Shown here: piece after piece, positions 1,531 through 32,000 of the stretch
Layout: each line of letters starts with the position of its first letter
Numbering within the stretch: position 1 is the first letter of the stretch
Assembly: GCA_048882505.1 (NCBI GenBank)
Contig: JBHLRO010000006.1
Span: forward strand, 60,001 to 92,000
Source: Candidatus Thorarchaeota archaeon
GTDB taxonomy: Archaea; Asgardarchaeota; Heimdallarchaeia; Hodarchaeales; Hodarchaeaceae
Direction: 5' to 3'
Length of the DNA stretch: 32,000 nucleotides
Notes under the pieces: generated by a model
What the model saw: the letters and a program-made list of their open reading frames with translations, nothing else
What the model was told of the DNA's origin: nothing
The model's database searches: none
Position numbers and translations under genes: made by a program

Positions 1531-1954
1531 GATTTTCTTGTCGCCTTAAAGTAGGACTTTTCGAGATTCGAATTTTTTGTTACCGATAGCTTTCGAATTC
1601 TTAGCGAGAGAAAACGTTTAACGAAACCACGCCCAAATTTGCATGAAAATCAAAGGGATATCCTTCAATCAGACGAGTATGGGTCTCGAGAACGACATCT
1701 GTGAAGGACTTGAGGAAGTTCCAAGGCGCTGGCTGTCCTTAGGGAGCCCAGCTGATCATTCCCTTAACCAGATTAAGGACCAAACCATCATAGGATTGTC
1801 ATAATTGGCAGCAGTGGGGATAATAGGAAGGTGTTACCACCTGTTGAATTTTCTGGCTCCTCTCAGGATTAGAATCTCACCAGAAAATTCAAATCTATTA
1901 TCCGCTGGCAAAAAGAAAAGCAGATAGGAATGCGATGATGAGGAAGGTTTCGAG

Positions 1955-4879
1955 CTGAGAGCACCTGGAGTCCAGAAAATAACCGGAGGATGGTTAATCC
2001 TTCTCTTTTTGTTCATGCCAGTTTTTGCTCTGGATTCTACTGTGTATATCGTGTTTTCTGCGGAGCACTCGACATCCTATGAAATACATGGGCCAATTTA
2101 CATCGTTGGAAACCAAGATTTTCATACTCAAGCCAGTTCAGAAAATTGGGCGGGAAATGGAACACTAACCTCCCCGTACGTCATCGAGAGCCTCTATTTG
2201 GTCGGCCAAGCTGACTTGATTCGAATAGAAGGTACGGATGTATTTTTTAGTATCAATAATTGCTGGATAGGATTCGGATCTAATGGGATTTCCTTGGCTA
2301 ATGTAACCAACGGGCGGATTATGGGCAATAACATCACCTATAACGACGGTTACGGAATTGATCTCTGGGCTTCCACAAATACTCTCATTTCGGGGAATAC
2401 AATCACAAACAACAATAACATCGGAATAAATCAGAATTACCTGGAAAATACCACGATCTCAGGGAATATAATATCCAAAAACGGCGGGGGGGGAATAGAT
2501 GGAAGTTTCTCTAATAGAAGTTCCATAATTGGCAATACTATTTCTGAGCATTGGGGAACTGGTATTCATATGTATATCTCGATTGGCAATATCATTGACA
2601 GTAATAACCTAACTGGTAACCGAATCAATGGCATCGGCCTTGAAGGGTCATCCAATATCACTATAACCAGCAATACCCTTACGAGTAACGGTGGATCTGG
2701 GATAAATCTAGCCTACTCTGGGAATAATCGCATTATTGATAATAGCCTAGTAAACAATGGTCTAAATATTGATGGCTGGGAGCTTGAGCACTATTTACAA
2801 ACTGAAGTGGCCAATAATTCAGTTAATGGTAAGTTAATAGTTTATTGGCAGCAGATTACTGGGGGAACCGTCCCAACGGGCGCTGGCGAAGTTATTTTGG
2901 TGAATTGCACAGGAATCGAGGTTACTGGACTGACCATTGAGAATGCATCGACAGGGATCCGTGTTGTTTTCGGTTCTAATGTAGTAATACACGATAATAA
3001 CATTTTCAATATGGTTAGATCTGGAATTGATATAGGAAACACACAGAATACTACGATAACGGGGAATACTCTTACCAATAATTCCGATGGCATCATTTTT
3101 CAAAATTCCATATCTGGAATCATCACTGGGAACAAAATTAGAAACAGGGGTGGTCGGGGACGGGGAATGGGAATAAGATTGGATTATTCCCATAAAATTA
3201 ATGTTTCAGGGAACATCATCAGCAATAACGAATACAATGGCATTTGGCTAGAATCATCTGATAGTAATCATATTGCAGCCAACAATATCACTGATAACGG
3301 ACACAACGGCATTCGTTTGGGAGCTTCCAGTAATAACACTATTTTGGGTAATAATATCCTAAATAACTCACACCATGGTATTCGTGTGAGGGATTCAGGA
3401 AACAGTACGGTTTTAGGCAATACTGTCGTTGCCAGCGGCGTGGATGGGATTAATATTGCTAACGCGGGCAGTTCGACCATTTCGAGCAATGCGGTGATTG
3501 ATAATGAGAGAATTGGAATGCATTTTGTTTCTTCGGGAAATAATCGAATTACTGATAACATCCTTGTAAACAATGGCATGGATGTTGAAGGTGGGGCCCT
3601 CGAGGATTATGTACAAGCTGATGTGGGCAATAATTCGATTGATGGGAAACCGATAATTTATTTTCAGCAGGTTACCGGAGCGACCGTCCCATACGATGCG
3701 AGTGAAGTGTTTTTGGTCGATTGTCATGACGTCGCGGTGATCGATTTGACCCTTTCGGACGGTTTGTTAGGTATGGTGGCTGCCTATAGCTCTAACTTGA
3801 GGATTTCCGGTAATAAAATATCCAGTAATGTAAGAGAAGGGATACGTTTGTATCGTACGGATAATAGCATTATTTCTGATAATTCTGTTAAAGACAACGG
3901 ATGGGATGGTATTCATCTGAGTGCCGCAGGTTATAACGTTATATCGGATAACGATGTCATTAATAACGGAGGATGGGGGATTACAGTGTCTGATTCCGAA
4001 ACAAACATCATTTCAGGAAATTTGGTAACGCAAAGTACCGATGGTATTAACATAGACTCCTCGAATAATCCCATCATTACAAGCAATACCGTTAGGGATA
4101 ACAGCGGATCTGGTTTACGGATAAGATTTACGCCAGGAAGCAATATTTCCACCAACACCATTACTAACAACGGAGCCTCGGGAATATACTTGGAAGGATC
4201 TGGGGAGAGCATTATCGGAGAAAATTCTATTACGAGGAGTCATGAGGCAGGCGTCTATCTGCTTCAATCAAACGGTTGCAACATTACCAGCAATATAATC
4301 ATGGAAAATGAAGGGATCGGCCTTGATCTATTCTTTGCTGAGAATGCTGTCGTTTCAGGAAATGCAGTTGGTAATAACAACCTTTGGGGAATTATGTTAC
4401 GTCATTCACAGGACAGCTTAATAATGGAGAATTCAGTAAACGATAATGAAGTCGGTGGCGTCTACCTGTCAGGATCTGGAAGTACTAAAATTTTGGGTAA
4501 TCTAATCGCCAATAACTCATATTATGGAATCTATCTAACCCAATCAGCCGGATGCGTTGTCGCTGGAAATAACTTCATTGGAAACAACAGAGTGAATGAG
4601 CAAGCATTTGATGATAGCCCAAATAATACGTTTATTTTTAATTACTGGAATGACTGGACAGGCCCAGATACCAATCGAGACGGAGTGGTAGATCAACCTT
4701 ACCGCATTGATGGAACAGCAAATAACTACGATAACTTTCCTCTGATTAACCCTGTCGTAGATCACGCAGTTGCAACCCCTGATCATTTGGTTACTGTTTC
4801 CTTTCTGGTTCTCGTGATTCTTGGCGCTATAGGGTTTTCAACTCGGATTAAACGCGGGGACAAAACTGCCAGGATTTGA
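1955..4879 (+). CDS. NosD/CASH right-handed parallel beta-helix surface protein with C-terminal membrane anchor
   Basis: Many I-x-x-N-x-I-x-x-N-x-x-x-G-I-x-L repeats, C-terminal NYW-x-x-W-x-x-PD..DG..D..Y-x-IDG motif, then TM helix and basic tail. The track start (TTG 2009) cuts the signal h-region; the frame is open back to CTG 1955. Confidence 0.9.
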   Translation: MRAPGVQKITGGWLILLFLFMPVFALDSTVYIVFSAEHSTSYEIHGPIYIVGNQDFHTQASSENWAGNGTLTSPYVIESLYLVGQADLIRIEGTDVFFSINNCWIGFGSNGISLANVTNGRIMGNNITYNDGYGIDLWASTNTLISGNTITNNNNIGINQNYLENTTISGNIISKNGGGGIDGSFSNRSSIIGNTISEHWGTGIHMYISIGNIIDSNNLTGNRINGIGLEGSSNITITSNTLTSNGGSGINLAYSGNNRIIDNSLVNNGLNIDGWELEHYLQTEVANNSVNGKLIVYWQQITGGTVPTGAGEVILVNCTGIEVTGLTIENASTGIRVVFGSNVVIHDNNIFNMVRSGIDIGNTQNTTITGNTLTNNSDGIIFQNSISGIITGNKIRNRGGRGRGMGIRLDYSHKINVSGNIISNNEYNGIWLESSDSNHIAANNITDNGHNGIRLGASSNNTILGNNILNNSHHGIRVRDSGNSTVLGNTVVASGVDGINIANAGSSTISSNAVIDNERIGMHFVSSGNNRITDNILVNNGMDVEGGALEDYVQADVGNNSIDGKPIIYFQQVTGATVPYDASEVFLVDCHDVAVIDLTLSDGLLGMVAAYSSNLRISGNKISSNVREGIRLYRTDNSIISDNSVKDNGWDGIHLSAAGYNVISDNDVINNGGWGITVSDSETNIISGNLVTQSTDGINIDSSNNPIITSNTVRDNSGSGLRIRFTPGSNISTNTITNNGASGIYLEGSGESIIGENSITRSHEAGVYLLQSNGCNITSNIIMENEGIGLDLFFAENAVVSGNAVGNNNLWGIMLRHSQDSLIMENSVNDNEVGGVYLSGSGSTKILGNLIANNSYYGIYLTQSAGCVVAGNNFIGNNRVNEQAFDDSPNNTFIFNYWNDWTGPDTNRDGVVDQPYRIDGTANNYDNFPLINPVVDHAVATPDHLVTVSFLVLVILGAIGFSTRIKRGDKTARI

Positions 4880-6621: not shown

Positions 6622-9600
6622 GTGATGAAACTTGAATGTAAGTCTTATTTTAGGTTTTTTATTATAAACATCGAGTTTTTGGTTTTGGTCAGTCTGATAA
6701 CGATAACTATGATAACCTTGACACCACAACTGCAACCATCGAATTCTTATTCAAACACGGATCAGAAACAGTCCAGTTTTGAGATAGATGAACCCTTGAA
6801 TACTCCTGTGGATAGGGCAACACCTTCAAATCTCGATAAAACAGTTTCCTCTGCTTTATGGTCTGGATCTTTATCCTTTCAAGAAAATCAGGGGCAATTT
6901 GGAAATTCTGCTGTTCGATATTATTTTAACGGAAGGGATTTTGGAATTGCGTTTTCCAGGACCGGGGTGACATATAAACTAACATCTGCCCTTGCTCAAG
7001 AGAAAAATATTCAGGCTTCTTTGTTTGATCTCGAATCAAGTTATGGACACGAACATCCATCCTTATCGTCTGGCCTGAGCACTTATATTAACATAGTTTT
7101 CGATAACTCCAACGCTGTTCAGCCAATGGGTCGTGAAGTGCATACCCATATGAGAAACTACCTGATCGGAAATGCTCCCGACTCATGGGTGACAGGGGTG
7201 AGGAGTTATGCTAGAGTTTTGTATGAAGAGTTATATTCTGGAGTCGATTTAATTTACTATTTTACTGCTGACGGACTCAAATATGAGTTTAGATTGCAGA
7301 ACGGGGCGGATCCCGCCATCATTCGTATGCGGTACAAAGGAGTAGACGAGCTTGAGATCGATGAACTGGGAAATTTGGTCGCCAGGACGGCTGCGGGCCC
7401 TCTCCAAGACCAGAATTTGTTGATTTATCAGAATACAGCTCATGGGCAGCATGAGATCCGGGGACAGTTTATCCTTTTGGATAGGTTGACTGTTGGCTTT
7501 CAAATACTCGAACCTTACGATCAAAACAGACCGCTTATCATCGATCCTCTGGTCTGGTCAACTTTCCTGGGCGGTGCTTCAGGAGACTTAGGGTATGCAC
7601 TTGCACTGGACACGGCAGATAATGTTTACGTGACAGGGCACACAGCAGATAGCATTCCCGATTTTCCTACTACCCCAGGTGCTTTTAATACGAGCCACAG
7701 TGGTTTCGACGACGTATTTGTTGCAAAATTCAGTGCGAATGGGACTAGATTGCTCTATTCTACGTTCATAGGAGGAAGTGGACCTGATTTCGGCTATGCT
7801 CTAACACTGGACAATGCCAATAATACATACTTGACTGGACTTACGACAAATCATACCATCGATTTTCCCACTACTGCAGGGGCGGTTAATACTACCCACA
7901 ACGGGAATTCCGACGTATTTGTTACGAAACTCAGCGCAGACGGAACCAGTTTGCTGTTTTCTACTCTTTTGGGGGGTAGCGGGGTCGATGTGGGTTATGC
8001 AATTGCGCTGGACCCCTCCAATAATGTCTACGTAACGGGATACACAGAGGACGCCGCGACCGATTTTCCTACGACGGTAGGTGCCTTTAACACGAGTCAC
8101 AATGGTGGAAATGATGTATTTGTTACGAAACTCAGCGCGGATGGCACTAGCTTACTCTATTCCACGTTTTTAGGGGGTAGCGGGATGGACGAGGGCCGTG
8201 CCCTGATGGTAGACGGAGCCATGAATACTTATGTGACGGGGCACACGGAAGATCATACGACCGACTTTCCCACCACTGTAGGTGCGATCAACACGAGTCA
8301 TAACGGGATTTTCGATGTATTTATCTTAAAATTAAGCCCCTCCGGGGGAAGCTTATTGTATTCCACCTTTCTCGGAGGTAGTGGGGTAGATTTCGGTTAT
8401 GCCTTAGCTATGGATGGTGCGAATAATGTTTATATTACTGGGTCAACAGATGACGCCACAACAGACTTTCCCACCACCGTAGGAGCAGTTAACACGACCC
8501 ACAGCGGAGGTTCGGATGTATATATTGCGATAATCAGTGCAGACGGTACGAGCTTACGTTACTCTACATTTTTGGGAGGGAGCGGACTTGATCAGGGTAA
8601 TGCTATCGCCTTAGATAGTGATAATAATATATATGTAACGGGATTCACGGAAGACCATACGACTGATTTTCCCGTTACTACGGTAAGTTATGACGGTACT
8701 CATAATGGAGCGGAGGATGTCTTTGTCAGCAAGCTTGACGCAAATGGTACGGCCCTGAGATATAGTACATTCCTGGGAGGCAGCGGAAGCGAACGGGGAA
8801 ATGCCCTTGCGGTGAATGATGTAAATATGGTTTACGTTGGAGGTAACACAGGTGACGCCATTATCGATTTTCCTGCCACCCCAGGCGCCGTAAATACGAC
8901 CCATAATGGTGGCACTGATTTATTTGCTTTCTTAATTCGAATTCCCACCGTGACATCCCCTCCAGTAGGATTATCTGCTGGTTTAGCTGGAAATCAAGGA
9001 GTTGTTTTATTTTGGAACGCACCTAGTAATGATGGAGATGCGCCGGTTACTTCATACCGCATTTATAGGAGTACAACGAGTGGAAGCTATGGGGTATTAC
9101 TTGCAGAGACTTCAATCCTCAAACTCTGGTTCAATGATTCAACAGTGGTTAGTGGACAGACCTATTATTACGTAGCGACCGCGATAAACGGGATGGGGGA
9201 AAGTGTTTGGTCAAATGAGGTCAGTATTACACTTCTTGCCGCAATCACTATCCCAGGCGTGCCGCAGAATGTTTCCACCTCTGCAGGAAGACACTTTATC
9301 GTAATTACTTGGGATCTGCCAACAAGTGATGGGGGATCCGCTATCATTCATTACAAAGTTTATCGGGGGACAATGAGTGGCGAATACCTATTACTCGGTA
9401 TCTCGATTAATCGTCAGTTCAACGATACTACAGCGGTCGGGGGGATAACCTATTATTATACGGTGACTGCGCTTAATGCTGTTGGGGAGAGTTTCCTTTC
9501 CATGGAGACCAGCAAGACAGCACTTATGGAAATGACTACGATTACCACTACAACAATCGTTACGACAAGCTCAACGACTGCCACGCCAAGCGTATTTCCA

Positions 9601-9669
9601 CAATTGCCACTAATATTGTTTTTTCTGTGCTCCCTTGTGATAGGGACTCATCGAAGAAGTAGAGTGTAG
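6622..9669 (+). CDS. SBBP beta-propeller repeat surface protein with two fibronectin type III domains, Thr-rich linker and C-terminal anchor
   Basis: Signal-like N-terminus; N-terminal FQENQGQ domain typical of SBBP proteins; seven YSTFLGGSG.D.G..(I/L)A.D...NVYVTG repeats; two FN3 units (L.W..P..DG...I..Y.IYR...SG.Y); TTITTTT linker, TM helix, RRSRV tail. Confidence 0.92.
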   Translation: MMKLECKSYFRFFIINIEFLVLVSLITITMITLTPQLQPSNSYSNTDQKQSSFEIDEPLNTPVDRATPSNLDKTVSSALWSGSLSFQENQGQFGNSAVRYYFNGRDFGIAFSRTGVTYKLTSALAQEKNIQASLFDLESSYGHEHPSLSSGLSTYINIVFDNSNAVQPMGREVHTHMRNYLIGNAPDSWVTGVRSYARVLYEELYSGVDLIYYFTADGLKYEFRLQNGADPAIIRMRYKGVDELEIDELGNLVARTAAGPLQDQNLLIYQNTAHGQHEIRGQFILLDRLTVGFQILEPYDQNRPLIIDPLVWSTFLGGASGDLGYALALDTADNVYVTGHTADSIPDFPTTPGAFNTSHSGFDDVFVAKFSANGTRLLYSTFIGGSGPDFGYALTLDNANNTYLTGLTTNHTIDFPTTAGAVNTTHNGNSDVFVTKLSADGTSLLFSTLLGGSGVDVGYAIALDPSNNVYVTGYTEDAATDFPTTVGAFNTSHNGGNDVFVTKLSADGTSLLYSTFLGGSGMDEGRALMVDGAMNTYVTGHTEDHTTDFPTTVGAINTSHNGIFDVFILKLSPSGGSLLYSTFLGGSGVDFGYALAMDGANNVYITGSTDDATTDFPTTVGAVNTTHSGGSDVYIAIISADGTSLRYSTFLGGSGLDQGNAIALDSDNNIYVTGFTEDHTTDFPVTTVSYDGTHNGAEDVFVSKLDANGTALRYSTFLGGSGSERGNALAVNDVNMVYVGGNTGDAIIDFPATPGAVNTTHNGGTDLFAFLIRIPTVTSPPVGLSAGLAGNQGVVLFWNAPSNDGDAPVTSYRIYRSTTSGSYGVLLAETSILKLWFNDSTVVSGQTYYYVATAINGMGESVWSNEVSITLLAAITIPGVPQNVSTSAGRHFIVITWDLPTSDGGSAIIHYKVYRGTMSGEYLLLGISINRQFNDTTAVGGITYYYTVTALNAVGESFLSMETSKTALMEMTTITTTTIVTTSSTTATPSVFPQLPLILFFLCSLVIGTHRRSRV
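7549..8940 (+). repeat. seven intragenic tandem repeats, ~201-nt (67-aa) period, SBBP blades
   Basis: For example gtatttgttacgaaactcagcgc occurs identically at 7915 and 8116 (201 nt apart); STF(L/I)GG-like motifs recur seven times. Confidence 0.9.
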
Positions 9670-19879: not shown

Positions 19880-20866
19880 CTATTCTATGAGCAAATTTCC
19901 GTTCCTTATGATGGGATCCCCATCAAGCGATATAGTTGGGTTTCTAGTCGACGAATCAATATGTGTGTTACTCTGGATAGTTCCCCCGAAATGTGTGTTT
20001 CCCCCGAATCCAATATGTCCTGAACCTGCAACTCTTTCATCTTCTATCAAATCTCCGATGTAGGTAGCTTTCGAGTTTGTCCCACACCCTACTTCACAAA
20101 TCCAATAAGAGTTTTCATCACCTGCAGATAGAATCTTACGAAATTGTTCCGCCTGTTCTGAGTCTCCTAGGATTTTTCCGATCCCATCGGTAACTTCGAC
20201 AGTTATTGGTGGATCTATCAATCCCATGGATTGAATGCTCCCGTTGATTACCCATTTACCCTCTGCACAACCTTTTTGGAGAGGCACTGCGACTACCCCT
20301 GAAGGAAGGGACGTAAGTACCCCTTTCTCCTTGCACAGACCATCAAAATACATTGCCTTCATCCCTTTCAGGGAGAAATGGATATCTGTACCTGCAGAAC
20401 TCCTTACATCTGCTTCTTTCGCCTCAGAAAATCTTTTTGCCACTTCTCTGGTGATCTTAGACAGCCTGTCGTAATCAAGATCAAAGCAGCGTCGGATCAT
20501 GCTTATATCGGCTCTACTCATCGAGAGGATTCTCGCGCCCTCATCCATTGCTTTTTTACGGGAGGAATGGGGAAAGAGCTTGGAATTACAAATAACAATG
20601 AGATCGGAATGATTCATGAATTCTTGCAGGGCATCCGGAAGCATTTTCTCAGCTAAGAGGTCAGCGTGAGGCATAAACAAGATGGTTTTGCCTCCCAAAC
20701 TTTCCGCTGCTTTTACAACAGACAATGGGATCTCTTCATTCTGTGAAAGATCCGAAATCACTAGTACGGACTCGCTTGGTTGAAGATTTGCACACTGTTT
20801 AAGATTTGACCTAATTATACCTTCTATTGACTTCATCTTTCTATAATCCAAACTAAATAGGTACAA
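19880..20866 (-). CDS. M29-like leucyl aminopeptidase (AmpS/AmpT, COG2309) family protein
   Basis: E.VL.ISD, S.AGTD..FS, .EVG.GTN, IEDER..G..HIGFG.N..FGG...SNTH.D, P.I..DG.....NG. Alternative ATG start at 20836. Confidence 0.85.
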   Translation of the reverse strand: MYLFSLDYRKMKSIEGIIRSNLKQCANLQPSESVLVISDLSQNEEIPLSVVKAAESLGGKTILFMPHADLLAEKMLPDALQEFMNHSDLIVICNSKLFPHSSRKKAMDEGARILSMSRADISMIRRCFDLDYDRLSKITREVAKRFSEAKEADVRSSAGTDIHFSLKGMKAMYFDGLCKEKGVLTSLPSGVVAVPLQKGCAEGKWVINGSIQSMGLIDPPITVEVTDGIGKILGDSEQAEQFRKILSAGDENSYWICEVGCGTNSKATYIGDLIEDERVAGSGHIGFGGNTHFGGTIQSNTHIDSSTRNPTISLDGDPIIRNGNLLIE

Positions 20867-22303: not shown

Positions 22304-23317
22304 TTAGTCATAGACAATTCGAGGATCCAACCACCCATAGATAATGTCTACGATTAGGTTAACAAACGCAAAGATCAGAGCGTACCAGAGAATCACAGCC
22401 TGAATGACAGGATAGTCTCTGGATTGGATTGAATCTATCATATATTGCCCTAGGCCATTATATTCAAACACTTTCTCAACGATGATGGAACCACCCAACA
22501 TGGCACCAAAAGCAACTCCAGCTACTGTAATTACGGGTATCATGGCATTCTTTAGAGAATGATGAATGACGACCCTAGACCGAGGTGCGCCTTTTGCCTT
22601 AGCCGTTCTTATGTAATCACTGTTTAAAACCTCAAGCATGGAAGAACGGGTCTGCCGTGCAAGAACAGCCATTAGAAAGGCTGATAGAGTGATGGCGGGC
22701 ATTATTATGTGTTGGATCGAATTTGAAAGTTCATCAAAGAATTCTGAGAATGTTGAGCCTGGGGGAAAGAATAAACCTGGAATGAGAGAAAGAATTCGAT
22801 CATAGTCCCCTGTACCAACAACAGGAAGAAGATCGAACACGACTCCAAATATCCACATCATCATCAAACCTAGCCAAAAAGCTGGTGCAGAAACTCCAAC
22901 CATTGCTGCAATCATGGCTACATTGTCAGTTTTGGAATAAGGTTTTACACTAGATATCGTCCCTGCTAATCCTCCAATGATCAGAGCAATCAAAGTGGCT
23001 GAACTGGCTAGAACTACTGTGTTGGTAAACCGTGGTATTATTTCTTCGAGAACAGGTTGGCCAGTTCGAATTGAAGACCCAAAGTCACCTCTCAGAATGT
23101 TTATCATGAACGTTAGGTACTGTTCAAGAAAAGGCTTGTTTAAACCCCATCTCTCACGAAGAATTTCAACTTGTTCAAATGGTGCGTCCTCAGGAACGAG
23201 CAAGAGCGCAGGATCACCAGGAATCATGCGAACCAACATAAAAACTACGAAAGAGACAACAAAAAGGACTGGAATGACTAGAAAGATCCTTCGAATTAAG
23301 AAAGAGGTAAAAGGCAG
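22304..23317 (-). CDS. dppB: peptide/nickel ABC transporter permease DppB/OppB
   Basis: FLIRR, PGDPA, GL.KP...QY, GDFGSS, RSSMLEVL..DYIRTAKAKG (EAA motif), H.L.NAMIP, IVEKVF...GLG. Probable CTG start at 23317. Confidence 0.93.
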   Translation of the reverse strand: MPFTSFLIRRIFLVIPVLFVVSFVVFMLVRMIPGDPALLLVPEDAPFEQVEILRERWGLNKPFLEQYLTFMINILRGDFGSSIRTGQPVLEEIIPRFTNTVVLASSATLIALIIGGLAGTISSVKPYSKTDNVAMIAAMVGVSAPAFWLGLMMMWIFGVVFDLLPVVGTGDYDRILSLIPGLFFPPGSTFSEFFDELSNSIQHIIMPAITLSAFLMAVLARQTRSSMLEVLNSDYIRTAKAKGAPRSRVVIHHSLKNAMIPVITVAGVAFGAMLGGSIIVEKVFEYNGLGQYMIDSIQSRDYPVIQAVILWYALIFAFVNLIVDIIYGWLDPRIVYD

Positions 23318-23324
23318 GGTTAAA

Positions 23325-23329
23325 TCACC
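23325..23329 (-). promoter_or_regulatory. GGTGA Shine-Dalgarno motif 7 nt upstream of the proposed CTG start of dppB
   Basis: Minus strand ATGGTGATTTAACC-CTG-CCT-TTT-ACC, just after the dppC stop. Confidence 0.55.
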
Positions 23330-23336
23330 ATCGTGT

Positions 23337-24260
23337 TTAATCAGCCACCATACGAGGATCAAGAGCGTCTCTAAGACCATCTCCAACCAAGTTGAATGCC
23401 AAAACTGTCAATATGATGGCAAGGCCCGGGAACAACGATAGATGGATTTTCCCAGTCAAAAGGTAAAGGCGTCCTTGGTTCAACATGACACCCCATTCTG
23501 GAGTGGGTGGTTGTGCTCCAAGGCCCAAAAAACCTAATGCCGCCGCGGATAGAATTGCACTGGCAAAATTGAGGGTAGATTGAACAATAAGGGGCCCTGC
23601 AGCATTAGGTAGGATGTGCCAAGCTAGAATCCTCCAATCTCGGGCACCCACCATTCGTGCTGCTTCGACATAATCGTTTTGTTTGATTGATATAACTTGA
23701 CCGCGGGTTAATCTTGCATAAATAGGGATAAGTGCCATACCAACGGCAACCATTGCATTTTGTAAAGTAGGTCCCAAAATTGCGATTATCATCAGTGCCA
23801 AGAGAAAAGCAGGGAATGCCATCATCACGTCGATTAATCGCATAAAGATATGATCGATCCATTTGCCATAATAACCACAAAGTGCGCCAATTATTGTGCC
23901 GATGACCAAGGCGATCGAAACAGAGACTAATCCTATTGTTATTGAAATCCGGCACCCAAGCATAATCCTGCTAAGCAAGTCTCTTCCAAGATCGTCAAGC
24001 CCTAGGAGATGTTGTGGTGACGGGGATTCACCTATTCGATCCAGACGTTCCGATGTAGGGAGGTGTCCATAGGGATCATAAGGTACCAATAGCGGATTTC
24101 CCCATGGATCCACGGCAAAGATTGCGATAAGAAGAATTATTAGGAGAACTATAAGCCCAAATACCGCACGCTTATTTTTCTTAAACTTATACAAAGTTTG
24201 GGGAAGTCTCGAAACCTTTGTCGTTTTGTCCATTACCTTTGCTGATGTTCCCATTTTCAT
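23337..24260 (-). CDS. dppC: peptide/nickel ABC transporter permease DppC/OppC
   Basis: F.KNK.A..GL, HLLGLD.LGRDLLSRI..G.RIS, YVEAAR..GA....I...HILPN, LGFLGLG.QPP.PEWG, GDGLRDALDP. Confidence 0.95.
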   Translation of the reverse strand: MKMGTSAKVMDKTTKVSRLPQTLYKFKKNKRAVFGLIVLLIILLIAIFAVDPWGNPLLVPYDPYGHLPTSERLDRIGESPSPQHLLGLDDLGRDLLSRIMLGCRISITIGLVSVSIALVIGTIIGALCGYYGKWIDHIFMRLIDVMMAFPAFLLALMIIAILGPTLQNAMVAVGMALIPIYARLTRGQVISIKQNDYVEAARMVGARDWRILAWHILPNAAGPLIVQSTLNFASAILSAAALGFLGLGAQPPTPEWGVMLNQGRLYLLTGKIHLSLFPGLAIILTVLAFNLVGDGLRDALDPRMVAD

Positions 24261-24314: not shown

Positions 24315-25289
24315 TTAGTTTTGATCCAATGCCCAACAGGCGGCGTAATGTTCATTTCCAAGATCTAGGTAGGGGGGTTCTTGTTCACTGCATTTCGGAA
24401 ATGCTAGCCAGCATCGGGGGTGAAATCTACATCCTGAAGGGGGATTTGCAGGGCTAGGGACATCTCCTTGGAGAATAATCCTTTTCCTCTTAGAATCAAG
24501 AGTCGGTTCAAGAATCGCTGACATCAGTGCCTTTGTATACGGATGTGCTGGATTTTGGAAAATATCGTCTGTTGGGCCATTTTCGACAATTTTTCCTACA
24601 TACATAACCGCAGTACGATCGGACATATATTCAATAATTGATAAATCGTGAGATATGAATAAATAGGAAAGGTTAAAGTCTTTTAAAAGATCCTTAAATA
24701 GATTAAGAACCTGAGACTGGACTGATACATCCAGGGCTGACGTGGGTTCATCTAAAACTATTAAACTGGGATTTAATGCCAAAGCGCGCGCCACGCAGAT
24801 CCGCTGACGCTGGCCTCCAGAAAATTCGTGAGGATGTCTATCCAGATGCTCCTCCTTAAGACCCACCTTGCTTAGAAGCTCTAGTACCCTATCCCTGATC
24901 TCTTGTCTTGGATAGATCCTATTAATGATAAGTGGTTCCCCGACTATTCTTTTTATGGTCATTCGGGGGTTTAATGAAGAGAATGGATCCTGAAATACCA
25001 TCATCATCTGCCTTCTCTGCTTTCGTAATCTTCCTCTATCCATCTGAGTGAGGTTTTTTCCATCAAATCTAATCTCCCCCGATGTGGGTTTCTCTAGCAT
25101 CAAAACCACCCTTCCAACAGTGGTTTTCCCACACCCAGACTCCCCCACTAGGCCCAAAACTTCCCCCTTCCGGATTTGAAAGCTGATATCATCAACCGCC
25201 CTTACCCATCCAACTGTCTTTCTTAATACTCCAGCCCGGATGGGAAAGTACATTTTGAGGTTTTTAACCTCTAATAAAGTCTTTTGCGT
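24315..25289 (-). CDS. dppF: peptide ABC transporter ATP-binding protein DppF/OppF
   Basis: GESGCGKTT, FQDP.SSLNPR, PHEFSGGQRQRI, DEPTSALD, oligo_HPY tail (HPYT, GCRFHPRC). Conserved LLEVKNLK lies upstream of track ATG 25253; proposed ACG start at 25289. Confidence 0.95.
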   Translation of the reverse strand, partial: TQKTLLEVKNLKMYFPIRAGVLRKTVGWVRAVDDISFQIRKGEVLGLVGESGCGKTTVGRVVLMLEKPTSGEIRFDGKNLTQMDRGRLRKQRRQMMMVFQDPFSSLNPRMTIKRIVGEPLIINRIYPRQEIRDRVLELLSKVGLKEEHLDRHPHEFSGGQRQRICVARALALNPSLIVLDEPTSALDVSVQSQVLNLFKDLLKDFNLSYLFISHDLSIIEYMSDRTAVMYVGKIVENGPTDDIFQNPAHPYTKALMSAILEPTLDSKRKRIILQGDVPSPANPPSGCRFHPRCWLAFPKCSEQEPPYLDLGNEHYAACWALDQN

Positions 25290-25349: not shown

Positions 25350-26396
25350 TCATGCATATGAATTACAAGCTACAAAGTGTTCTTTATCGACTTCAATGAG
25401 TGTAGGTTTATTTTTTAAACAAACATTCCTTACTTGATCACAACGGGGATGAAATCTGCAGCCAAAAGGTGGATTTATTAAATCAGGGACAGTTCCTTTG
25501 ATAGTGTTCAGTCTCCTCCCTCTACTTTCCCCTAGACGAGGAATGCATTTCATTAAACCGGAGGTATATGGATGAGTTGGATTGTTAAAAAGGGAACGAA
25601 TGTCTGTGTATTCCACAACATTTCCCGCGTACATGACGGCGACCTGTTCGCACATTTCCGCAATCAATCCCAGGTGATGCGAAATTAGCAAGAGTGAAAT
25701 ACCAAATTCTTTTCGTATTCTTTTGATTAACGCTAAAATCTGCGCCTGAATGGTGACATCAAGGGCTGTAGTGGGCTCATCCGCGATAAGAAGCTGTGGA
25801 TTGCAAGCTAAGGCCATTGCAATCATAATTCGTTGTCGCATCCCTCCACTTAATTGGTGTGGATACCTGGTTGCGACCTTCTCGGGTTCTGGTATCCCTG
25901 TTAGATCAATGAGTTCAAGAGCACGTTCAGTTGCCTTCTGTTCAAGATCCCTATTTTCCAATTTGGATACGTCTTCTCTTTTGTTTGATTGTGAGAGTTC
26001 AAAGCCATACGTTTCTGGGTGAAGCAAGATAGCTTCAACAATTTGATTGACAATAGGAATAACTGGATTTAAAGATGTCATAGGCTCTTGAAAGATCATA
26101 GAAATGCTCTTCCCTCTAATTTCCTTTTGCATGTATTTCTCACTCTTTTGCAGGAGGTTAACACCATTGAACCAGATTTCTCCTTGAACAATACGTCCTG
26201 GTGGTTGAGGAATCAACCGCATTATAGACAATGCTGTCACGCTCTTTCCGCAACCTGTTTCTCCTACAAGACCTAGAGATCCATTTCTACCTTTTATCTC
26301 AAGGTTAATGGCATCTATGGCTTTTACGTTACCTGAGTATGTAGAAAAATGAGTAGAGAGGTTTTTTACTCTTAAGAAGGGTTCTAATTCAGTCAT
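25350..26396 (-). CDS. dppD: peptide ABC transporter ATP-binding protein DppD/OppD
   Basis: GETGCGKS, IFQEPMTSLNP, YPHQLSGGMRQR, ADEPTTALDVTIQAQIL, HPYT, GCRFHPRC. Confidence 0.95.
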   Translation of the reverse strand: MTELEPFLRVKNLSTHFSTYSGNVKAIDAINLEIKGRNGSLGLVGETGCGKSVTALSIMRLIPQPPGRIVQGEIWFNGVNLLQKSEKYMQKEIRGKSISMIFQEPMTSLNPVIPIVNQIVEAILLHPETYGFELSQSNKREDVSKLENRDLEQKATERALELIDLTGIPEPEKVATRYPHQLSGGMRQRIMIAMALACNPQLLIADEPTTALDVTIQAQILALIKRIRKEFGISLLLISHHLGLIAEMCEQVAVMYAGNVVEYTDIRSLFNNPTHPYTSGLMKCIPRLGESRGRRLNTIKGTVPDLINPPFGCRFHPRCDQVRNVCLKNKPTLIEVDKEHFVACNSYA

Positions 26397-26778: not shown

Positions 26779-26812
26779 AAAAAATTGTTGTCCCCTTTGA
26801 ATCGGGGACAAC
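26779..26812 (-). terminator. hairpin plus T-tract downstream of the binding-protein gene (terminator or mRNA-stabilising stem)
   Basis: Perfect 9-bp inverted repeat GTTGTCCCC (26787-26795) / GGGGACAAC (26804-26812), 8-nt loop, followed on the minus strand by AATTTTTT; about 50 nt after the stop at 26865. Confidence 0.6.
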
Positions 26813-26864: not shown

Positions 26865-28580
26865 TCAGTTCTTTTTTTTCAATTTTCGTCCGAAGAAAGC
26901 TTTCTTGCCCATCATGAGGGCCAATGCAATCATCACCAATGGGAATTCAAAACTCGGAGTGACTTGTCCAGGCACGGGGTATCCGGCTTCGTCTAAGAGC
27001 TGTTTAGCCATTTCAATGTCCTGTTCGTAGCTCACATTACCCTCTTGAACTCCATAGGCGTTGGGAGCCATCATGGTATCAATCATGGCGGAGCCATAGC
27101 CCGAGTAAAGCGTTTCAACCATTTTCGTTTGATTGACTGCGTAATTCAGTGCTTGTCTTACTTTTCTGTTTTTAAAGATTTCAAAGTCGTGATTCAAGCC
27201 AATGTGCATCATACGAACTGAAGCTGCTTTGATCATGTAGACTTCAGGATCCGCCATCAATGTGTCAATAGCAGTCGTCGGGGCTTGATGGATGTAGTCT
27301 ACATCTCCAGCTAATAATGCTGTAACACGCGACGCGGAGTCTGTGATTTTCTTCATGATGACTGTCTGAAAAGCAGGTTTCTTACCCCAATAGTTTTCAT
27401 TTCGTTGCAGTGTGATGTGATCGCCTTTTACCCATTCTACAAATTTGTAAGGACCAGTGCCAGAGGGGTCAGTCTGGAAATCTTCACCAGGTACCGTCTC
27501 ATTTGCCTTATGCAGAGCATCACATTGAGTTTTAGATACGATTTCGGATGGCTGATAATTGAAGAAGGGCATCAAGGCAGCGAATCCGATTGTTTCAATC
27601 TTAAGCTGGTACTTGGAGAGAACTGTGATATTCTTTATTGGACCTGAAGGAGGACCAAATGATGATGACGCTAACGCACCGCTGTCAGGAGAAGCTAGAC
27701 GATCCCAGAGGGTATATTTGACATCCTCTGCTGTAAGTTCACTACCATCATGGAAATAAACTCCTTGACGGATGTTGATAGTCCAATTCTCTGCGCTACT
27801 ATCGGTCGACCAGGATTCTGCTAGAACAGGTACAACATCGCCCGTTTCCTGATCTAGTTTCACTAACGTTTCACAGACAAGACGTACGATTCCAAGATTT
27901 GACATTCCAGAAGTATGCTGTGGATCAAATTTGACTGGCTCTGTTCCCAGGGATAATGTAAGAGTATCATTTGACGTTTCTGAATAGGCATCAAATATAT
28001 CAACCGATTCGTCGTGATAAGTCGTGATTCCTTGCACTGATTTTGCTGCATGGAGATTAGGTTCGATTGCAAGAAATATCCAAGGTGCATCGGTCATAAC
28101 GATGTCATTCATTTCTTCGTAGAGATCCATTAGGTTGGCTTCGTTGGCCTCCTTCCGGGATTGAACGAAAAGGTCATCGTAGTGTGTGTTATTGTAGAAG
28201 AGAGGTTCTAATCCTCGCTGGGAGATGAAATTCTTTAATGCCCCATCGGCATTCATCCACGGGTTTCCAAAACCGACAAACCATGCCTGATAATCTCCCA
28301 CTAATTTTGTTCGATTCGATTCCCTCTGAGCCGCTGCAAAAGAAGCCCAATCATGGGATTCTATCTTCATATTGATGTCTACTTCAGCTAGGAATGATTG
28401 AACAGCTTCTACTATCTGTTGGTCCATAGCGTAGCGCCCTGCACCGTAAAATAATGTGAATTCGAATCTATAATCCGCCGCTTTGACTGGTACTGTAGAA
28501 GCGTAGGGTACCAACAGCAAGAGCGCTAGGACTCCGATCTTTAGGTACGAAAATCCTATTTTCCTTCTATTAAACGGCAA
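26865..28580 (-). CDS. dppA: family 5 ABC solute-binding protein (DppA/OppA-like), circularly permuted, with signal peptide and C-terminal anchor
   Basis: TLTL....EP..FDP, ETLV..D..TG...P.LAESW, IR.GV.FHDG..LTAEDV, GTGPYKF.EW..G..I.L.RN..YWG, R.ALNYAVN, AK.LL.EAGY. TTG 28580 follows GAGGTGA (track GTG 28592 is the RBS itself). Confidence 0.9.
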   Translation of the reverse strand: MPFNRRKIGFSYLKIGVLALLLLVPYASTVPVKAADYRFEFTLFYGAGRYAMDQQIVEAVQSFLAEVDINMKIESHDWASFAAAQRESNRTKLVGDYQAWFVGFGNPWMNADGALKNFISQRGLEPLFYNNTHYDDLFVQSRKEANEANLMDLYEEMNDIVMTDAPWIFLAIEPNLHAAKSVQGITTYHDESVDIFDAYSETSNDTLTLSLGTEPVKFDPQHTSGMSNLGIVRLVCETLVKLDQETGDVVPVLAESWSTDSSAENWTINIRQGVYFHDGSELTAEDVKYTLWDRLASPDSGALASSSFGPPSGPIKNITVLSKYQLKIETIGFAALMPFFNYQPSEIVSKTQCDALHKANETVPGEDFQTDPSGTGPYKFVEWVKGDHITLQRNENYWGKKPAFQTVIMKKITDSASRVTALLAGDVDYIHQAPTTAIDTLMADPEVYMIKAASVRMMHIGLNHDFEIFKNRKVRQALNYAVNQTKMVETLYSGYGSAMIDTMMAPNAYGVQEGNVSYEQDIEMAKQLLDEAGYPVPGQVTPSFEFPLVMIALALMMGKKAFFGRKLKKKN

Positions 28581-28846
28581 TACCGTCTTCACCTCGTCAT
28601 TTTACCTTGATTCTGCACGAAATATTTATTACAATTATTAGACGACTTATGTAGGGCCAATATTTAGACGGTTTAGACCTGCATAAGTTAACAAATATTT
28701 TCGACAGATCGCAACTTCATGCTATTATTGACATAATAAACTTTCTGTCTGTTAAACCGATACTTATATACACTTAATAAAAAATAAAAAATGGCAGTCA
28801 TTATTAAGAAATCTCTAAAATTGTGATGCTTATTGGAGGATAAGAA

Positions 28847-29899
28847 TTGATTAGTCGTGAAGAATACCTCAAAATACCGCTTAAAGAGCGATTCATAAAG
28901 CTGGATAAAGTGGAAGAAGAACATGCGGAAGAACTGCATAGAAAAATTATAACCATCGATTTACACAGCCACATTTTATGGGGTGACTATTTTATTATGC
29001 CCCGTATTATGAATTCTGGCGTTTCCGGGTTTGTCGAAGCAGTTCCCGGGGTTTTTGGAGATTTTGACGTAGCAATGGCTTATCTAGGCCAGTTTCTTTT
29101 TCGCGTGAATAAACATGAGGTTTTTACGCCCGTATATCAAGCTCAGGACTTTAGAAGGGCCAAGAAGGAAAACAAGATCGGGGTGATGTTCCAACTAGAA
29201 CCCCAACCGTTTGGAAGAAATCTAGACAATGTTGATATAGCCTATGGCCATGGTATCCGGATGGCCCTTCTGACGTTTAATACCCGCAATTATGTAGGTG
29301 ATGGGTGCGGTGAAAGGACGGATGAAGGTCTGAGTTACTTCGGTTTAGATTTAATTGAAAGGATGAACAAGGTAGGAATGATGATTGATTTATCCCATGT
29401 AGGGGTCAAGACAACGTTGGAAACAATCGAGCATTCCAAAGATCCTGTAATGTGTAACCATGTTGGAGCACGAACTTTATATCCCCAGTGCAAGCGAATA
29501 AAAACAGACGAGGAACTCACAGCTCTTGCGGAAAAAGGCGGAGTAGCTGGAGTTTCTGCCATCCCGAATCAGTTAAGCGGCGATAAGGAGCAAGGGATAG
29601 AGAATCTCCTAGATCATGTCGACTATATGGTTAACCTTATGGGCATTAATCATGTTGCAATAGGATTAGATAATGTTTTTGGCGATCAAGTCGAATCCCA
29701 CCGTAGATCAGCCCAGACGGTGTTCAAAATTTCGTACATCGGCCAAGAATTAAACGCACCTTTCATGTGGGGAATAGAGAGTCCTGAAGAGTGGCCTAAT
29801 ATCACACGAGGACTTGTCCAAAGGGGTTATTCGGATCTGGAAATCGAAAAGATACTAGGTGAGAACTCCCTAAAGCTCATGGAAAGAGTCATTGGATAA
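28847..29899 (+). CDS. membrane dipeptidase (peptidase M19) family protein, paralog 1
   Basis: IDLHSH, QLE, LTFN..N..GDGC.ER.D.GLS.FG...IE.MN..GM.IDLSH.G..T, NH..AR, HV.IGLD, RGYS..EI.KI.GEN; GGAGG RBS. Confidence 0.93.
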   Translation: MISREEYLKIPLKERFIKLDKVEEEHAEELHRKIITIDLHSHILWGDYFIMPRIMNSGVSGFVEAVPGVFGDFDVAMAYLGQFLFRVNKHEVFTPVYQAQDFRRAKKENKIGVMFQLEPQPFGRNLDNVDIAYGHGIRMALLTFNTRNYVGDGCGERTDEGLSYFGLDLIERMNKVGMMIDLSHVGVKTTLETIEHSKDPVMCNHVGARTLYPQCKRIKTDEELTALAEKGGVAGVSAIPNQLSGDKEQGIENLLDHVDYMVNLMGINHVAIGLDNVFGDQVESHRRSAQTVFKISYIGQELNAPFMWGIESPEEWPNITRGLVQRGYSDLEIEKILGENSLKLMERVIG

Positions 29900-29996: not shown

Positions 29997-31058
29997 ATGT
30001 TATCGCGAGAAGAATACCTGAAGCTTCCTCTTGAAGAACGTTACATTAAGTTGGATGCGTCTGAGAAGGAAAGAGCTGAGGAGCTCTTTGAAAAATCCAC
30101 CACAGTGGATTTACACACCCACATCTTTGGAAGTGTATTTTTTGAATATGAATATGAGCAGGTACGCCAAATGGGAGTTGATGGACTGTTTGAGGCGGTA
30201 CCTTGTTTATCAGAGGACTTTTTGGAATCTATGAAAATCCTGGGAAGGTACAAAAGTATCACAATGAAGGAACCAGGACTTATTCCAGCCTATACTGCTG
30301 CTGATGTCGAAAAAGCGAAAAAAGAAGGAAAACAGGCCGTTTTATACCAGTTGGAACCCCATACATTCAAGAGAAATCCAGATCTTGTAGAAGTAGCCTA
30401 TGGACTGGGCATTAGAATGGCCCTGCTTACATTTAACTCAAGGAACTATCAAGGAGACGGATGTTCAGAGAGAACCGATTCCGGGTTGAGCTATCTAGGC
30501 ATGGAGCTGATAGAGAGAATGAACAAAATAGGAATGATGGTAGATCTTTCTCATGTGGGGATAAAAACAACCTTGGATGCAATAGAGCATTCCAAAGATC
30601 CGGTTCTTCTAAACCATACAGGTGCCCGGGTTTTAAATCCACCAGTCCTTAGATTAAAACCTGATGAGCCCCTGAAAGCGGTTGCGGAAAAAGGGGGGCT
30701 TATAGGCATCTCTGCCATCCCTAATCAGCTTTCCAGTCAGAAAAAGCAGGGCATTGATGATTTACTTAACCACCTAGACTACTGCATCAAATTGGTTGGA
30801 ATCGATCATGTGGTGATAGGTCTTGATAATGTCTTTAGAGACCAAGTGGCTGGACACAAGAAGCAAGAAGCGAAAAACATGGTAAACTTCGCTCGATCAG
30901 GAATAGTCCTTGCAGCGGACTATATGTGGGGGATCGAATCTCCAGGTGAGTGGCCCAATATCGTTCGTGGATTGGTAAAGAGAGGCTACTCAGACTCAGA
31001 AATCAAGAAAATCATCGGTGAAAACGCGCTCAGGGTTATGAGAAAAATCATAGGGTAA
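29997..31058 (+). CDS. membrane dipeptidase (peptidase M19) family protein, paralog 2
   Basis: Same motif set (VDLHTH, QLE, LTFN, DLSH, NHTGAR, GLD). Confidence 0.93.
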   Translation: MLSREEYLKLPLEERYIKLDASEKERAEELFEKSTTVDLHTHIFGSVFFEYEYEQVRQMGVDGLFEAVPCLSEDFLESMKILGRYKSITMKEPGLIPAYTAADVEKAKKEGKQAVLYQLEPHTFKRNPDLVEVAYGLGIRMALLTFNSRNYQGDGCSERTDSGLSYLGMELIERMNKIGMMVDLSHVGIKTTLDAIEHSKDPVLLNHTGARVLNPPVLRLKPDEPLKAVAEKGGLIGISAIPNQLSSQKKQGIDDLLNHLDYCIKLVGIDHVVIGLDNVFRDQVAGHKKQEAKNMVNFARSGIVLAADYMWGIESPGEWPNIVRGLVKRGYSDSEIKKIIGENALRVMRKIIG

Positions 31059-31101
31059 CGAAAGATAGCAAGAAAATTTGGGCACGTTAGGAGGCGTTGA
31101 G

Positions 31102-32000
31102 ATGATTCCGCTCCAAGAATATCTGGATCTTCCTCTGAAAGAGCGTTTTATCAAACTGGATAAGGCTGAGGAAGAACGTGCGGATGAGCTTTATGAAAAG
31201 TTTATTGCAATAGAACTTCACAGTCACATACTTCTTGATGAGGATTTTATTGTTCCCCGTATTAAAAACTCCGGGATCAATGGTTTTTTCGAAGCTGTTG
31301 CTGCTATAAACGAGAATTTTCACGATTCAATGGATACCCTTGGATATCTGCTCAATCGAACCATCAAACATCCAGATTTTGTGCCTGCATTCAGGGCAAG
31401 AGACTTTAGAAAAGCAAAGGATGAGGGGAAACAGGCTATAATGTTCCAACTGGAACCTCAAACCTTCGGAAACGATCTGGATCGCGTAAACATCGCCTAT
31501 GGTCTGGGAATAAGGATGGCCCTTCTTTCATTCAACACCCGTACCTACGCGGGCGATGGTTGCGGAGAAAGAACCAACCAAGGTCTGAGTTATTTTGGAT
31601 TAGATCTAGTGGAGCGAATGAACAAGGTTGGCATGATGATAGATCTATCTCACGTGGGGATACAAACCACCTTGGACGTTATTGAAGCATCAAAACATCC
31701 TGTTTTGGCTAATCACGTGGGAGCACGTGAATTATATAAACAAAGTAAGCGATTGAAGACCGATGAGGAACTTAAAGCAATTGCAGAGAAAGGGGGTCTG
31801 ATAGGAGTTTCTGCCATCCCGAATCAGCTAAGTGGAGAAGAAAAACAAAGTATCGATGACCTACTGAATCATGTAGAATACATTGTCGACTTAATCGGAG
31901 TAGAGCATGTAGGAATCGGACTCGACAATGTATTTGAAGATCAAGTGGAATATCACCGCCAGGCAGCAAAATCCATTTTCAAATTGGAACACACGGGGCA
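31102..32000 (+). CDS. membrane dipeptidase (peptidase M19) family protein, paralog 3, truncated by the window end (not in the ORF track)
   Basis: AGGAGG RBS then ATG 31102; open to the window end: MIPLQEYLDLPLKERFIKLD...IELHSH...QLEP...DLSHVG...NHVGAR...GLDNVFEDQV. Confidence 0.92.
   Translation, partial: MIPLQEYLDLPLKERFIKLDKAEEERADELYEKFIAIELHSHILLDEDFIVPRIKNSGINGFFEAVAAINENFHDSMDTLGYLLNRTIKHPDFVPAFRARDFRKAKDEGKQAIMFQLEPQTFGNDLDRVNIAYGLGIRMALLSFNTRTYAGDGCGERTNQGLSYFGLDLVERMNKVGMMIDLSHVGIQTTLDVIEASKHPVLANHVGARELYKQSKRLKTDEELKAIAEKGGLIGVSAIPNQLSGEEKQSIDDLLNHVEYIVDLIGVEHVGIGLDNVFEDQVEYHRQAAKSIFKLEHTG

Follow-up and report, generated by a model that had tools for sequence, protein, structure and literature searches.

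Solute-binding proteins (SBPs) have the textbook hinged 'Venus flytrap' fold and are a main scaffold for engineered biosensors, in which circular permutants are made by design. A gene of a Hodarchaeales archaeon raises the question of whether such a permutant has also arisen in nature, and whether its product still serves an importer. The gene lies in a window of 32,000 nucleotides (GenBank assembly GCA_048882505.1, Candidatus Thorarchaeota archaeon, contig JBHLRO010000006.1, positions 60,001 to 92,000), where it occupies positions 26865..28592 of the minus strand. It encodes a family 5 SBP, P0001, that an earlier reading made from the sequence alone had taken to be circularly permuted. The reading favored here, with a probability of roughly 0.85, is that P0001 is a functional surface-tethered SBP of the adjacent OppBCDF-type importer with a naturally circularly permuted cluster C (OppA/DppA/GsiB/NikA) fold.

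Order of the chain in P0001

P0001 matches the Pfam family SBP_bac_5 (PF00496) in two stretches (274 bits, cut-off 32.4, E 2.7e-81). When P0001 was compared with all PDB chains using phmmer, the best matches (5u4o, 6ofq and 6hlx) gave pairs of high-scoring segment pairs (HSPs) in swapped order. Residues 210-540 of the query correspond to 5u4o 45-361 and residues 58-176 to 5u4o 376-489, and the region of residues 41-203 also matches 6ofq 390-506 and 6hlx 328-467. Each two-stretch PDB match found by phmmer was swapped; i.e., no solved cluster C member had the permuted order. The order was also examined by BLASTP in the 120 best database relatives, among which only P0002-P0006 (76-100% identity) were collinear with P0001. 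Two HSPs swapped relative to the query, which is the canonical order, were obtained for 103 of the 115 relatives that remained; the other 12 gave no HSP pair above the filter, and the permuted order was found in none of the 115. Hidden Markov models (HMMs) of the N-terminal and C-terminal parts of the domain both matched P0001 completely, the C-part (model positions 1-154) preceding the N-part (2-318).

The PDB, BLASTP and HMM comparisons all failed to recover in P0001 the collinear order of the solved PF00496 members. Two blocks that span the whole domain were found instead in swapped order, with the native termini joined via a five-residue linker. These sequence comparisons confirm that P0001 is a genuinely circularly permuted cluster C SBP, as had been proposed from the sequence alone. 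The outcome named at that time as incompatible with the proposal, a single collinear alignment of the whole protein, did not occur among the PDB or canonical database matches, and the short linker that had been expected between the native termini is present (SETSN).

The open reading frame (ORF) encodes 575 residues from a GTG at 28592 to the stop codon at 26865-26867, and residue numbers follow this version throughout. A TTG at 28580, the start adopted in the sequence-only reading, is probably the likelier start, because the sequence GAGGTG (28590-28595) lies 9 nt upstream of it and because the resulting protein of 571 residues has the start of the identical database protein P0002. The features of the protein, all encoded on the minus strand, begin with a signal peptide (residues 1-39; 28476..28592) that has a basic n-region, the hydrophobic core YLKIGVLALLLLVPY and a VKA/AD cleavage-type motif, which was used to place the putative cleavage site. 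The block that follows (residues 41-203; 27984..28472) is delimited by the PDB, P0008 and HMM matches and represents the C-terminal third of a canonical protein, that is, the rest of the C-lobe and the return to the N-lobe. Sequence comparison places the linker SETSN (residues 204-208; 27969..27983) between the native C-terminus (..DAY) and the native mature N-terminus (DTLTL..). The N-terminal two thirds (residues 209-539; 26976..27968), recognized by homology to canonical proteins, end with the helix ..AKQLLDEAGYP. A C-terminal anchor (residues 540-575; 26868..26975) completes the protein and consists of a VPGQVT spacer, a PSFEF motif (with PGF in the orthologues), a short hydrophobic helix and a K/R-rich tail. 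The block boundaries given in the sequence-only reading (residues ~41-204, with the N-terminal part from nucleotide 27968) were accurate to a few residues, and the anchor had been located correctly at the new C-terminus, directly after the AGYP end.

An AlphaFold2 model of P0001 was produced from an alignment that contained P0001, its permuted relatives and the two blocks of 50 canonical relatives as separate rows. The mean predicted local distance difference test score (pLDDT) was 86.7 and the predicted template modeling score (pTM) 0.82. Residues 41-545 were predicted with confidence (pLDDT ~86 in the linker region), residues 1-37 scored below 50, and a helix was predicted at 550-567. Only residues 203-542 of the model were aligned by Foldseek/VIA, since these aligners are sequential; model residues 209-541 corresponded to residues 1-343 of E. 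coli DppA (1dpp). The published limits of the DppA lobes, from the 1995 structures, are residues 1-260 and 479-507 (N-lobe) and 261-478 (C-lobe). With these limits the cut, at about DppA 343-350, would fall within the C-lobe and both hinge crossings would be kept. A cut at this position implies that the membrane tether should leave from the C-lobe rather than from the N-lobe, and the retained hinge crossings imply that Venus-flytrap closure and docking should resemble those of canonical relatives. The earlier suggestion that the tether had moved to the other lobe is therefore supported as far as the position of the cut is concerned, given the published lobe limits. The proposed chain would run from the signal peptide through the second half of the C-lobe and the return strand of the N-lobe to the five-residue linker and the N-terminal two thirds. 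It would end directly behind the AGYP helix, in a loop at the surface of the C-lobe, and the Heimdall-CTERM-like anchor would come next. The dipeptide is bound in E. coli DppA by R383 and D436 (precursor numbering; PMC12136057), and the region that holds these residues falls in the block that now comes first in P0001.

The canonical cluster C/PF00496 members compared were E. coli GsiB/YliB (1uqw), the Bacillus anthracis protein 5u4o, Helicobacter pylori DppA (6ofq), AccA, AgaA, NikZ/NikA and E. coli DppA (1dpp, 8z1z). Unlike these, P0001 starts with the equivalent of DppA ~350-end and finishes with that of 1-~343, which would leave both new termini in the C-lobe. A literature search returned no natural permutation in OppA/DppA-type (cluster C) SBPs, only engineered permutants and a cluster B case. 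The latter is TpMglB-2 (Tp0684) of Treponema pallidum, a natural circularly permuted ABC SBP described as 'Type Ic / Cluster Bc' (Brautigam et al. 2016, PMC4990184). The earlier statement that no description of such an arrangement was known thus holds for the cluster C family as far as this search went, but not for SBPs as a whole. TpMglB-2 resembles P0001 as a natural permutation of an ABC importer's SBP, and it retains ligand binding; it differs in being a cluster B/type I sugar binder with another cut position, in being bacterial and in being an N-terminal lipoprotein. Membership of P0001 in 'Cluster Bc' was considered and rejected, since cluster C proteins account for all of its matches in sequence and in fold, and the two cases are analogous only.

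Natural permutants reveal the cuts that evolution tolerates. They also bear on annotation: permuted forms carry the usual label 'ABC transporter substrate-binding protein' in Pfam and NCBI, and no more than ~60% of them is covered by sequential aligners, with the result that structure-based function transfer and domain-boundary logic will be off.

Origin and recurrence of the cut

Canonical-order siblings of P0001 were found in P0007, in the P0008 cluster (18 members, NCBI label Hodarchaeales) and in a gene of the congeneric genome G020 (contig C138). Their N blocks are 61-64% and their C blocks 65-69% identical to those of P0001; by BLASTP, residues 41-203 of P0001 match P0008 384-553 at 67% identity. 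The signal peptide is homologous between P0001 and the siblings (..YLKI..LLL.LPY..). The siblings end in ..GAY-LPSGTDA-PGFGG-hydrophobic-RKQKKRK and the permuted orthologues in ..AGYPVPGAGAPGFE-hydrophobic-RRKSKK, which is the same kind of anchor. The signal peptide, the PGF-type anchor and an operon slot between M19 dipeptidase genes and oppD are thus common to both, whereas the siblings differ in their N-then-C order and in oppDFCB genes that are an outgroup to those of the permuted loci.

The permuted junction (AY-SETSN-DTLTL) resembles a native C-terminus fused straight to a canonical mature N-terminus (..LEPSDDTVV..). The most likely origin of the P0001 order would be a tandem duplication, in frame and confined to the mature domain, that gave signal peptide-N-C-N-C-anchor; the leading N block and the final C block would then have been deleted, with retention of the original signal peptide and anchor. 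This route is inferred from the fit of the junction pattern, as tandem forms are known only from distant relatives: natural N-C-N-C proteins of the family include P0242 (1104 aa, ~26% identity) and P0261 (1192 aa). The motif FEF, which BLAST aligns both at the new N-terminus (RFEFTL) and in the anchor (PSFEF), was considered as a microhomology or duplication scar and dropped, because PGF(E/D) is a generic sorting motif. Family 5 domains also occur in larger fusions: P0243 and P0244 (~1860 aa) combine tandem N-C-N-C domains with Ser/Thr kinase modules, and P0245 (1065 aa) combines a binding domain with an MCP-signal domain.

A second group of permuted proteins (clade 2; ~585-605 aa) is 24% identical to P0001 and collinear with it over the full length. 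It occurs in five congeneric genomes, at loci L009 (positions 1498-3255, plus strand, genome G011), L010, L011, L012 and L014, and not in the genome of the window. Its members carry a signal peptide and an (A/T)GF-transmembrane (TM)-RKKR tail, and ~29 database clusters labelled Heimdallarchaeota/Hodarchaeales belong to it. According to the N-part and C-part HMMs, the cut is identical to that of P0001. The nearest canonical relatives of clade 2 are Firmicutes-like (~43% identity). A maximum-likelihood tree of 56 sequences was calculated after the permuted ones had been re-ordered in silico. The P0001 clade (clade 1; support 100/93) is sister to canonical P0007/P0008 (100/100) within canonical archaeal sequences, and clade 2 (100/100) falls within the other canonical group, which is Firmicutes-like. 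A single clade of all permuted forms was rejected by the approximately unbiased (AU) test (delta lnL 308, p-AU 3e-84), and rejection of a single origin indicates that clade 2 arose independently. On this phylogeny, the same loop has been cut at least once more within the Hodarchaeales. One clade 2 protein, P0143 (900 aa, from a Logan contig), has ~300 extra residues, Thr/Pro-rich near their end, that separate the AGY-type domain end from a clear TPGF-type anchor at the C-terminus.

Other cuts were found in the genome of the window itself. A census of its family 5 ORFs (n=8) comprised four canonical proteins, P0001 and three proteins to which the N-part and C-part HMMs assign a different cut, with the order N[~256-317]-C-N[~32-217]. 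The three are encoded at C6:42410-44440 (plus strand, ~15.6 kb before the window), C5:139677-141566 (plus strand) and C20:1389-4259 (minus strand). Among 1.84 billion representatives, a phmmer search across the junction gave 64 hits, a lower bound on permuted forms rather than a census. Among them, P0270 is a bacterial lipoprotein that has a lipobox, the P0001-type cut and no C-terminal anchor; P0296 combines the P0001-type cut with an N-terminal TM anchor; and P0257 is a lipoprotein with the other cut.

The C-terminal anchor had been offered as the reason for the permutation. The end of P0001 has the three parts of a sorting signal (PSFEF, the helix at 550-567 and the K/R tail), and a cognate sortase is encoded in the genome. 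The sortase gene lies on contig C18 (53496-53792 region; L020:1411-2169, minus strand) and scores 267.9 bits against the NCBIfam heimdallarchaeosortase model NF045528 (cut-off 130). A search of the genome with Pfam Exosortase_EpsH (PF09721) gave no match, and TIGR04125 gave only a weak one, later identified as the heimdallarchaeosortase by NCBIfam. Against the Heimdall-CTERM model NF045529 (curated cut-off 24 bits), the tails scored 22.3 bits in the orthologue P0005, 18.5 in clade 2 P0122 and 16.8 in canonical P0008; that of P0001, likewise below the cut-off, scored 12.2 bits (E 0.19). P0001 shares with PGF-CTERM/archaeosortase A substrates of Haloferax and with Heimdall-CTERM proteins the tripartite arrangement of P-G/S-F motif, hydrophobic helix and basic tail, together with an encoded sortase homologue, and differs in its sub-cut-off score and in the replacement of the G of PGF by S. 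A literature search found no demonstration of the processing of any Heimdall-CTERM protein.

Tails of the type (T)PGF(E/T)-TM-basic were found on at least ten further ORFs of the genome, which amounts to a sizeable set of sortase substrates. They include a canonical family 5 paralogue (C25:32186-33868) that ends in TPGFE, a TM helix and a basic tail. Judged from these tails, surface proteins here generally carry a C-terminal sorting anchor, canonical and permuted SBPs alike, and this removes the reason previously given for the permutation. The idea that the permutation suits a C-terminal anchor in place of an N-terminal lipid is not supported by the comparison with the canonical siblings, which are 62-68% identical and bear a homologous PGF-type anchor on the native C-terminus. 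Nor is it supported by the presence of the P0001-type cut in the bacterial lipoprotein P0270, which lacks a C-terminal anchor, and in P0296 with its N-terminal TM anchor.

A more general form of this idea is that the permutation was selected because it places the C-terminal tether and the free N-terminus on the C-lobe instead of the N-lobe, thereby improving docking or dynamics. We regard such adaptive re-tethering as unlikely, albeit with some points in its favor. The same loop was cut independently in two C-terminally anchored Hodarchaeales clades, and the whole cassette, beyond the SBP, differs between permuted and canonical loci, in agreement with co-adaptation with the permease. In addition, the TpMglB-2-type permutation occurs mostly in tethered SBPs, and the same idea of a link with anchoring was raised as a speculation for the tethered TpMglB-2 (PMC4990184). 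On the other hand, the same anchor type is borne on the native C-terminus by the canonical siblings and by canonical paralogues of the same genome; P0270 has the cut together with an N-terminal lipobox but lacks a C-terminal anchor, and P0296 has it together with an N-terminal TM anchor; and the three other permutants of the same genome are cut elsewhere. Our own reading is that the recurrent cut in Hodarchaeales marks a structurally permissive site rather than an adaptation to the anchor. A wider picture is offered only tentatively, as one that is probably not correct: cluster C SBPs would have been re-cut repeatedly in nature, the loop after AGYP would be a selected re-tethering point in tethered archaeal SBPs, and receptor and translocator would co-evolve as exchangeable cassettes, with canonical and permuted forms competing for one locus within a genus. 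If that were so, an anchor shifted from N-lobe to C-lobe would alter the docking of the receptor on the permease or its dwell there, and the canonical/permuted pairs of Hodarchaeales would constitute a natural experiment on chain topology and tether position in ABC importers.

The case is unusually clean. A canonical sibling of 62-68% identity has the same signal peptide, anchor and operon slot, the gene is under strong purifying selection (below), a second independent cut at the same place occurs in the same archaeal order, and other cuts occur in the same genome. Such matched natural pairs would allow chain connectivity and tether position to be related to folding, ligand affinity, hinge dynamics and translocator docking.

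The opp locus and the role of P0001

Four importer genes follow the P0001 gene on the minus strand. They encode an oppD-like ATPase (25350-26396) and an oppF-like ATPase (24315-25253), both with Pfam ABC_tran and oligo_HPY matches, an oppC-like permease (23337-24260; BPD_transp_1 and OppC_N) and an oppB-like permease (22304-23386; BPD_transp_1 and BPD_transp_1_N). A PrpD/MmgE-family gene lies downstream of the oppB-like permease. At the end of this opp-PrpD operon, an ORF of 328 residues (19880-20866, minus strand) has no Pfam match at E <= 0.01 and has counterparts of 62-86% identity at the same position in congeners. Upstream and divergent, on the plus strand, are three M19 dipeptidase genes (28847-29899, 29997-31058, and 31078-31998 and onward; Pfam Peptidase_M19, E 1e-58 to 6e-66), and these neighbors suggest a peptide-type substrate. 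A perfect 9-bp G+C-rich hairpin with a T run can be read from the sequence at 26779..26812 (minus strand), 53 nt past the stop codon of the P0001 gene, where a spacer of 468 nt that leads to oppD begins. As a possible terminator or attenuator, it may yield a separate, more abundant SBP transcript.

The most likely role of P0001, inferred from this context, would be that of receptor for the adjacent OppBCDF-type importer. It is very improbable that P0001 is instead a receptor unconnected to that importer, having drifted from transport towards, e.g., the role of a sensor or of an adhesin-like surface protein. Such a role would fit the 468-nt spacer with its terminator-like hairpin, a binding-site motif unlike that of classical DppA/OppA, and the joining of family 5 domains to kinase or MCP modules elsewhere (P0243-P0245). 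P0001 itself, however, bears no signaling domain; the order SBP-oppD-F-C-B is present in all five congeneric genomes (G000, that of the window, and four others), where the SBP co-varies with the opp genes. Furthermore, a hairpin behind the SBP gene is a common means of boosting SBP expression in ABC operons.

Several observations weigh against parts of the importer-receptor reading or of the history proposed for it. For the packing of block 41-203, the support comes from the confidence of the AlphaFold model and from homology in sequence. By eye, the motif with the Asp that binds the alpha-amino group in DppA/OppA is GFGNPW in P0001 and GWGNP in the canonical siblings, so a plain dipeptide is not assured as the substrate. 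The anchor is degenerate (PSF for PGF, ~13 hydrophobic residues, 12.2 bits to Heimdall-CTERM), which renders sortase processing of P0001 uncertain. The signal peptide-N-C-N-C-anchor intermediate was absent among close relatives and from the P0001 clade in a search restricted to longer proteins, where only distant tandems were found. Finally, the recurrence of the same cut could reflect selection instead of permissiveness.

The P0001 gene is intact, conserved and under strong purifying selection. Collinear orthologues are present in the same operon in three genomes of the same genus, with identities of 96% (G014), 77% (G001) and 77% (G015). Ratios of nonsynonymous to synonymous substitution (dN/dS, Nei-Gojobori) were 0.053 for G000/G014 (dS 0.42) and 0.089 for G001/G015, and were low in both blocks. 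An identical contig of 192 nt from an independent study (run X2; 27891-28082) bridges the linker at 27969-27983 without differences. At the AGYP/VPG junction (26975/26976), no independent-study contig bridges with at least 31 letters on each side; the sole run that crosses it is the source-like X1. The sequence comes from a metagenome-assembled genome, and tandem SBP genes and tandem-fused SBPs occur in the family, yet a mis-assembled tandem pair, a chimeric contig or a duplicate remnant being lost is largely refuted, and scarcely credible, given an architecture that four species-level genomes share and that recurs in five protein clusters of NCBI, JGI and Logan, the bridged linker junction, the intact frames, the dN/dS of 0.05-0.09 in both blocks and the confident AlphaFold model.

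The fifth genome, G020, allows the history of the locus to be followed within the genus. A canonical SBP lies there between the M19 genes and oppD, in the slot that the permuted gene occupies in G000, G014, G001 and G015. The SBP of G020 is 62-65% and its oppD/F/C/B genes are 69-77% identical to those of the other four, and G020 is the outgroup to all four in each of these comparisons. Its M19 flanks, in contrast, are 90-92% identical to those of G015, and at the EF-2 locus its DNA identity is 79% with G015, ~75% with G001 and ~72-73% with G000/G014. The species tree obtained from this single marker is ((G000,G014),(G001,(G015,G020))); by EF-2 and M19 identity, G020 thus nests among species with the permuted form. 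As the outgroup position of its SBP and opp genes conflicts with this nesting, simple ancestral retention of the canonical gene in G020 is not favored. On the single-marker tree, the permuted form would have been ancestral to the five species, and in G020 an incoming canonical SBP-oppDFCB cassette would have replaced the permuted one at this locus. The permutation would then predate the five sampled species of the genus, while the canonical sister lineage persists in Hodarchaeales.

Two further ORFs of the window, 2009-4879 (956 aa) and 6622-9669 (1015 aa), both on the plus strand, were rejected as species-tree markers because they encode variable multi-copy proteins. They have many partial paralogues (33-54% identity) scattered in congeners and look like members of a surface-protein family. 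The oppF gene of G020 (L016:12662-14149, plus strand) encodes ~490 residues rather than ~326, and its ~140 extra residues split the ABC_tran domain into two Pfam stretches.

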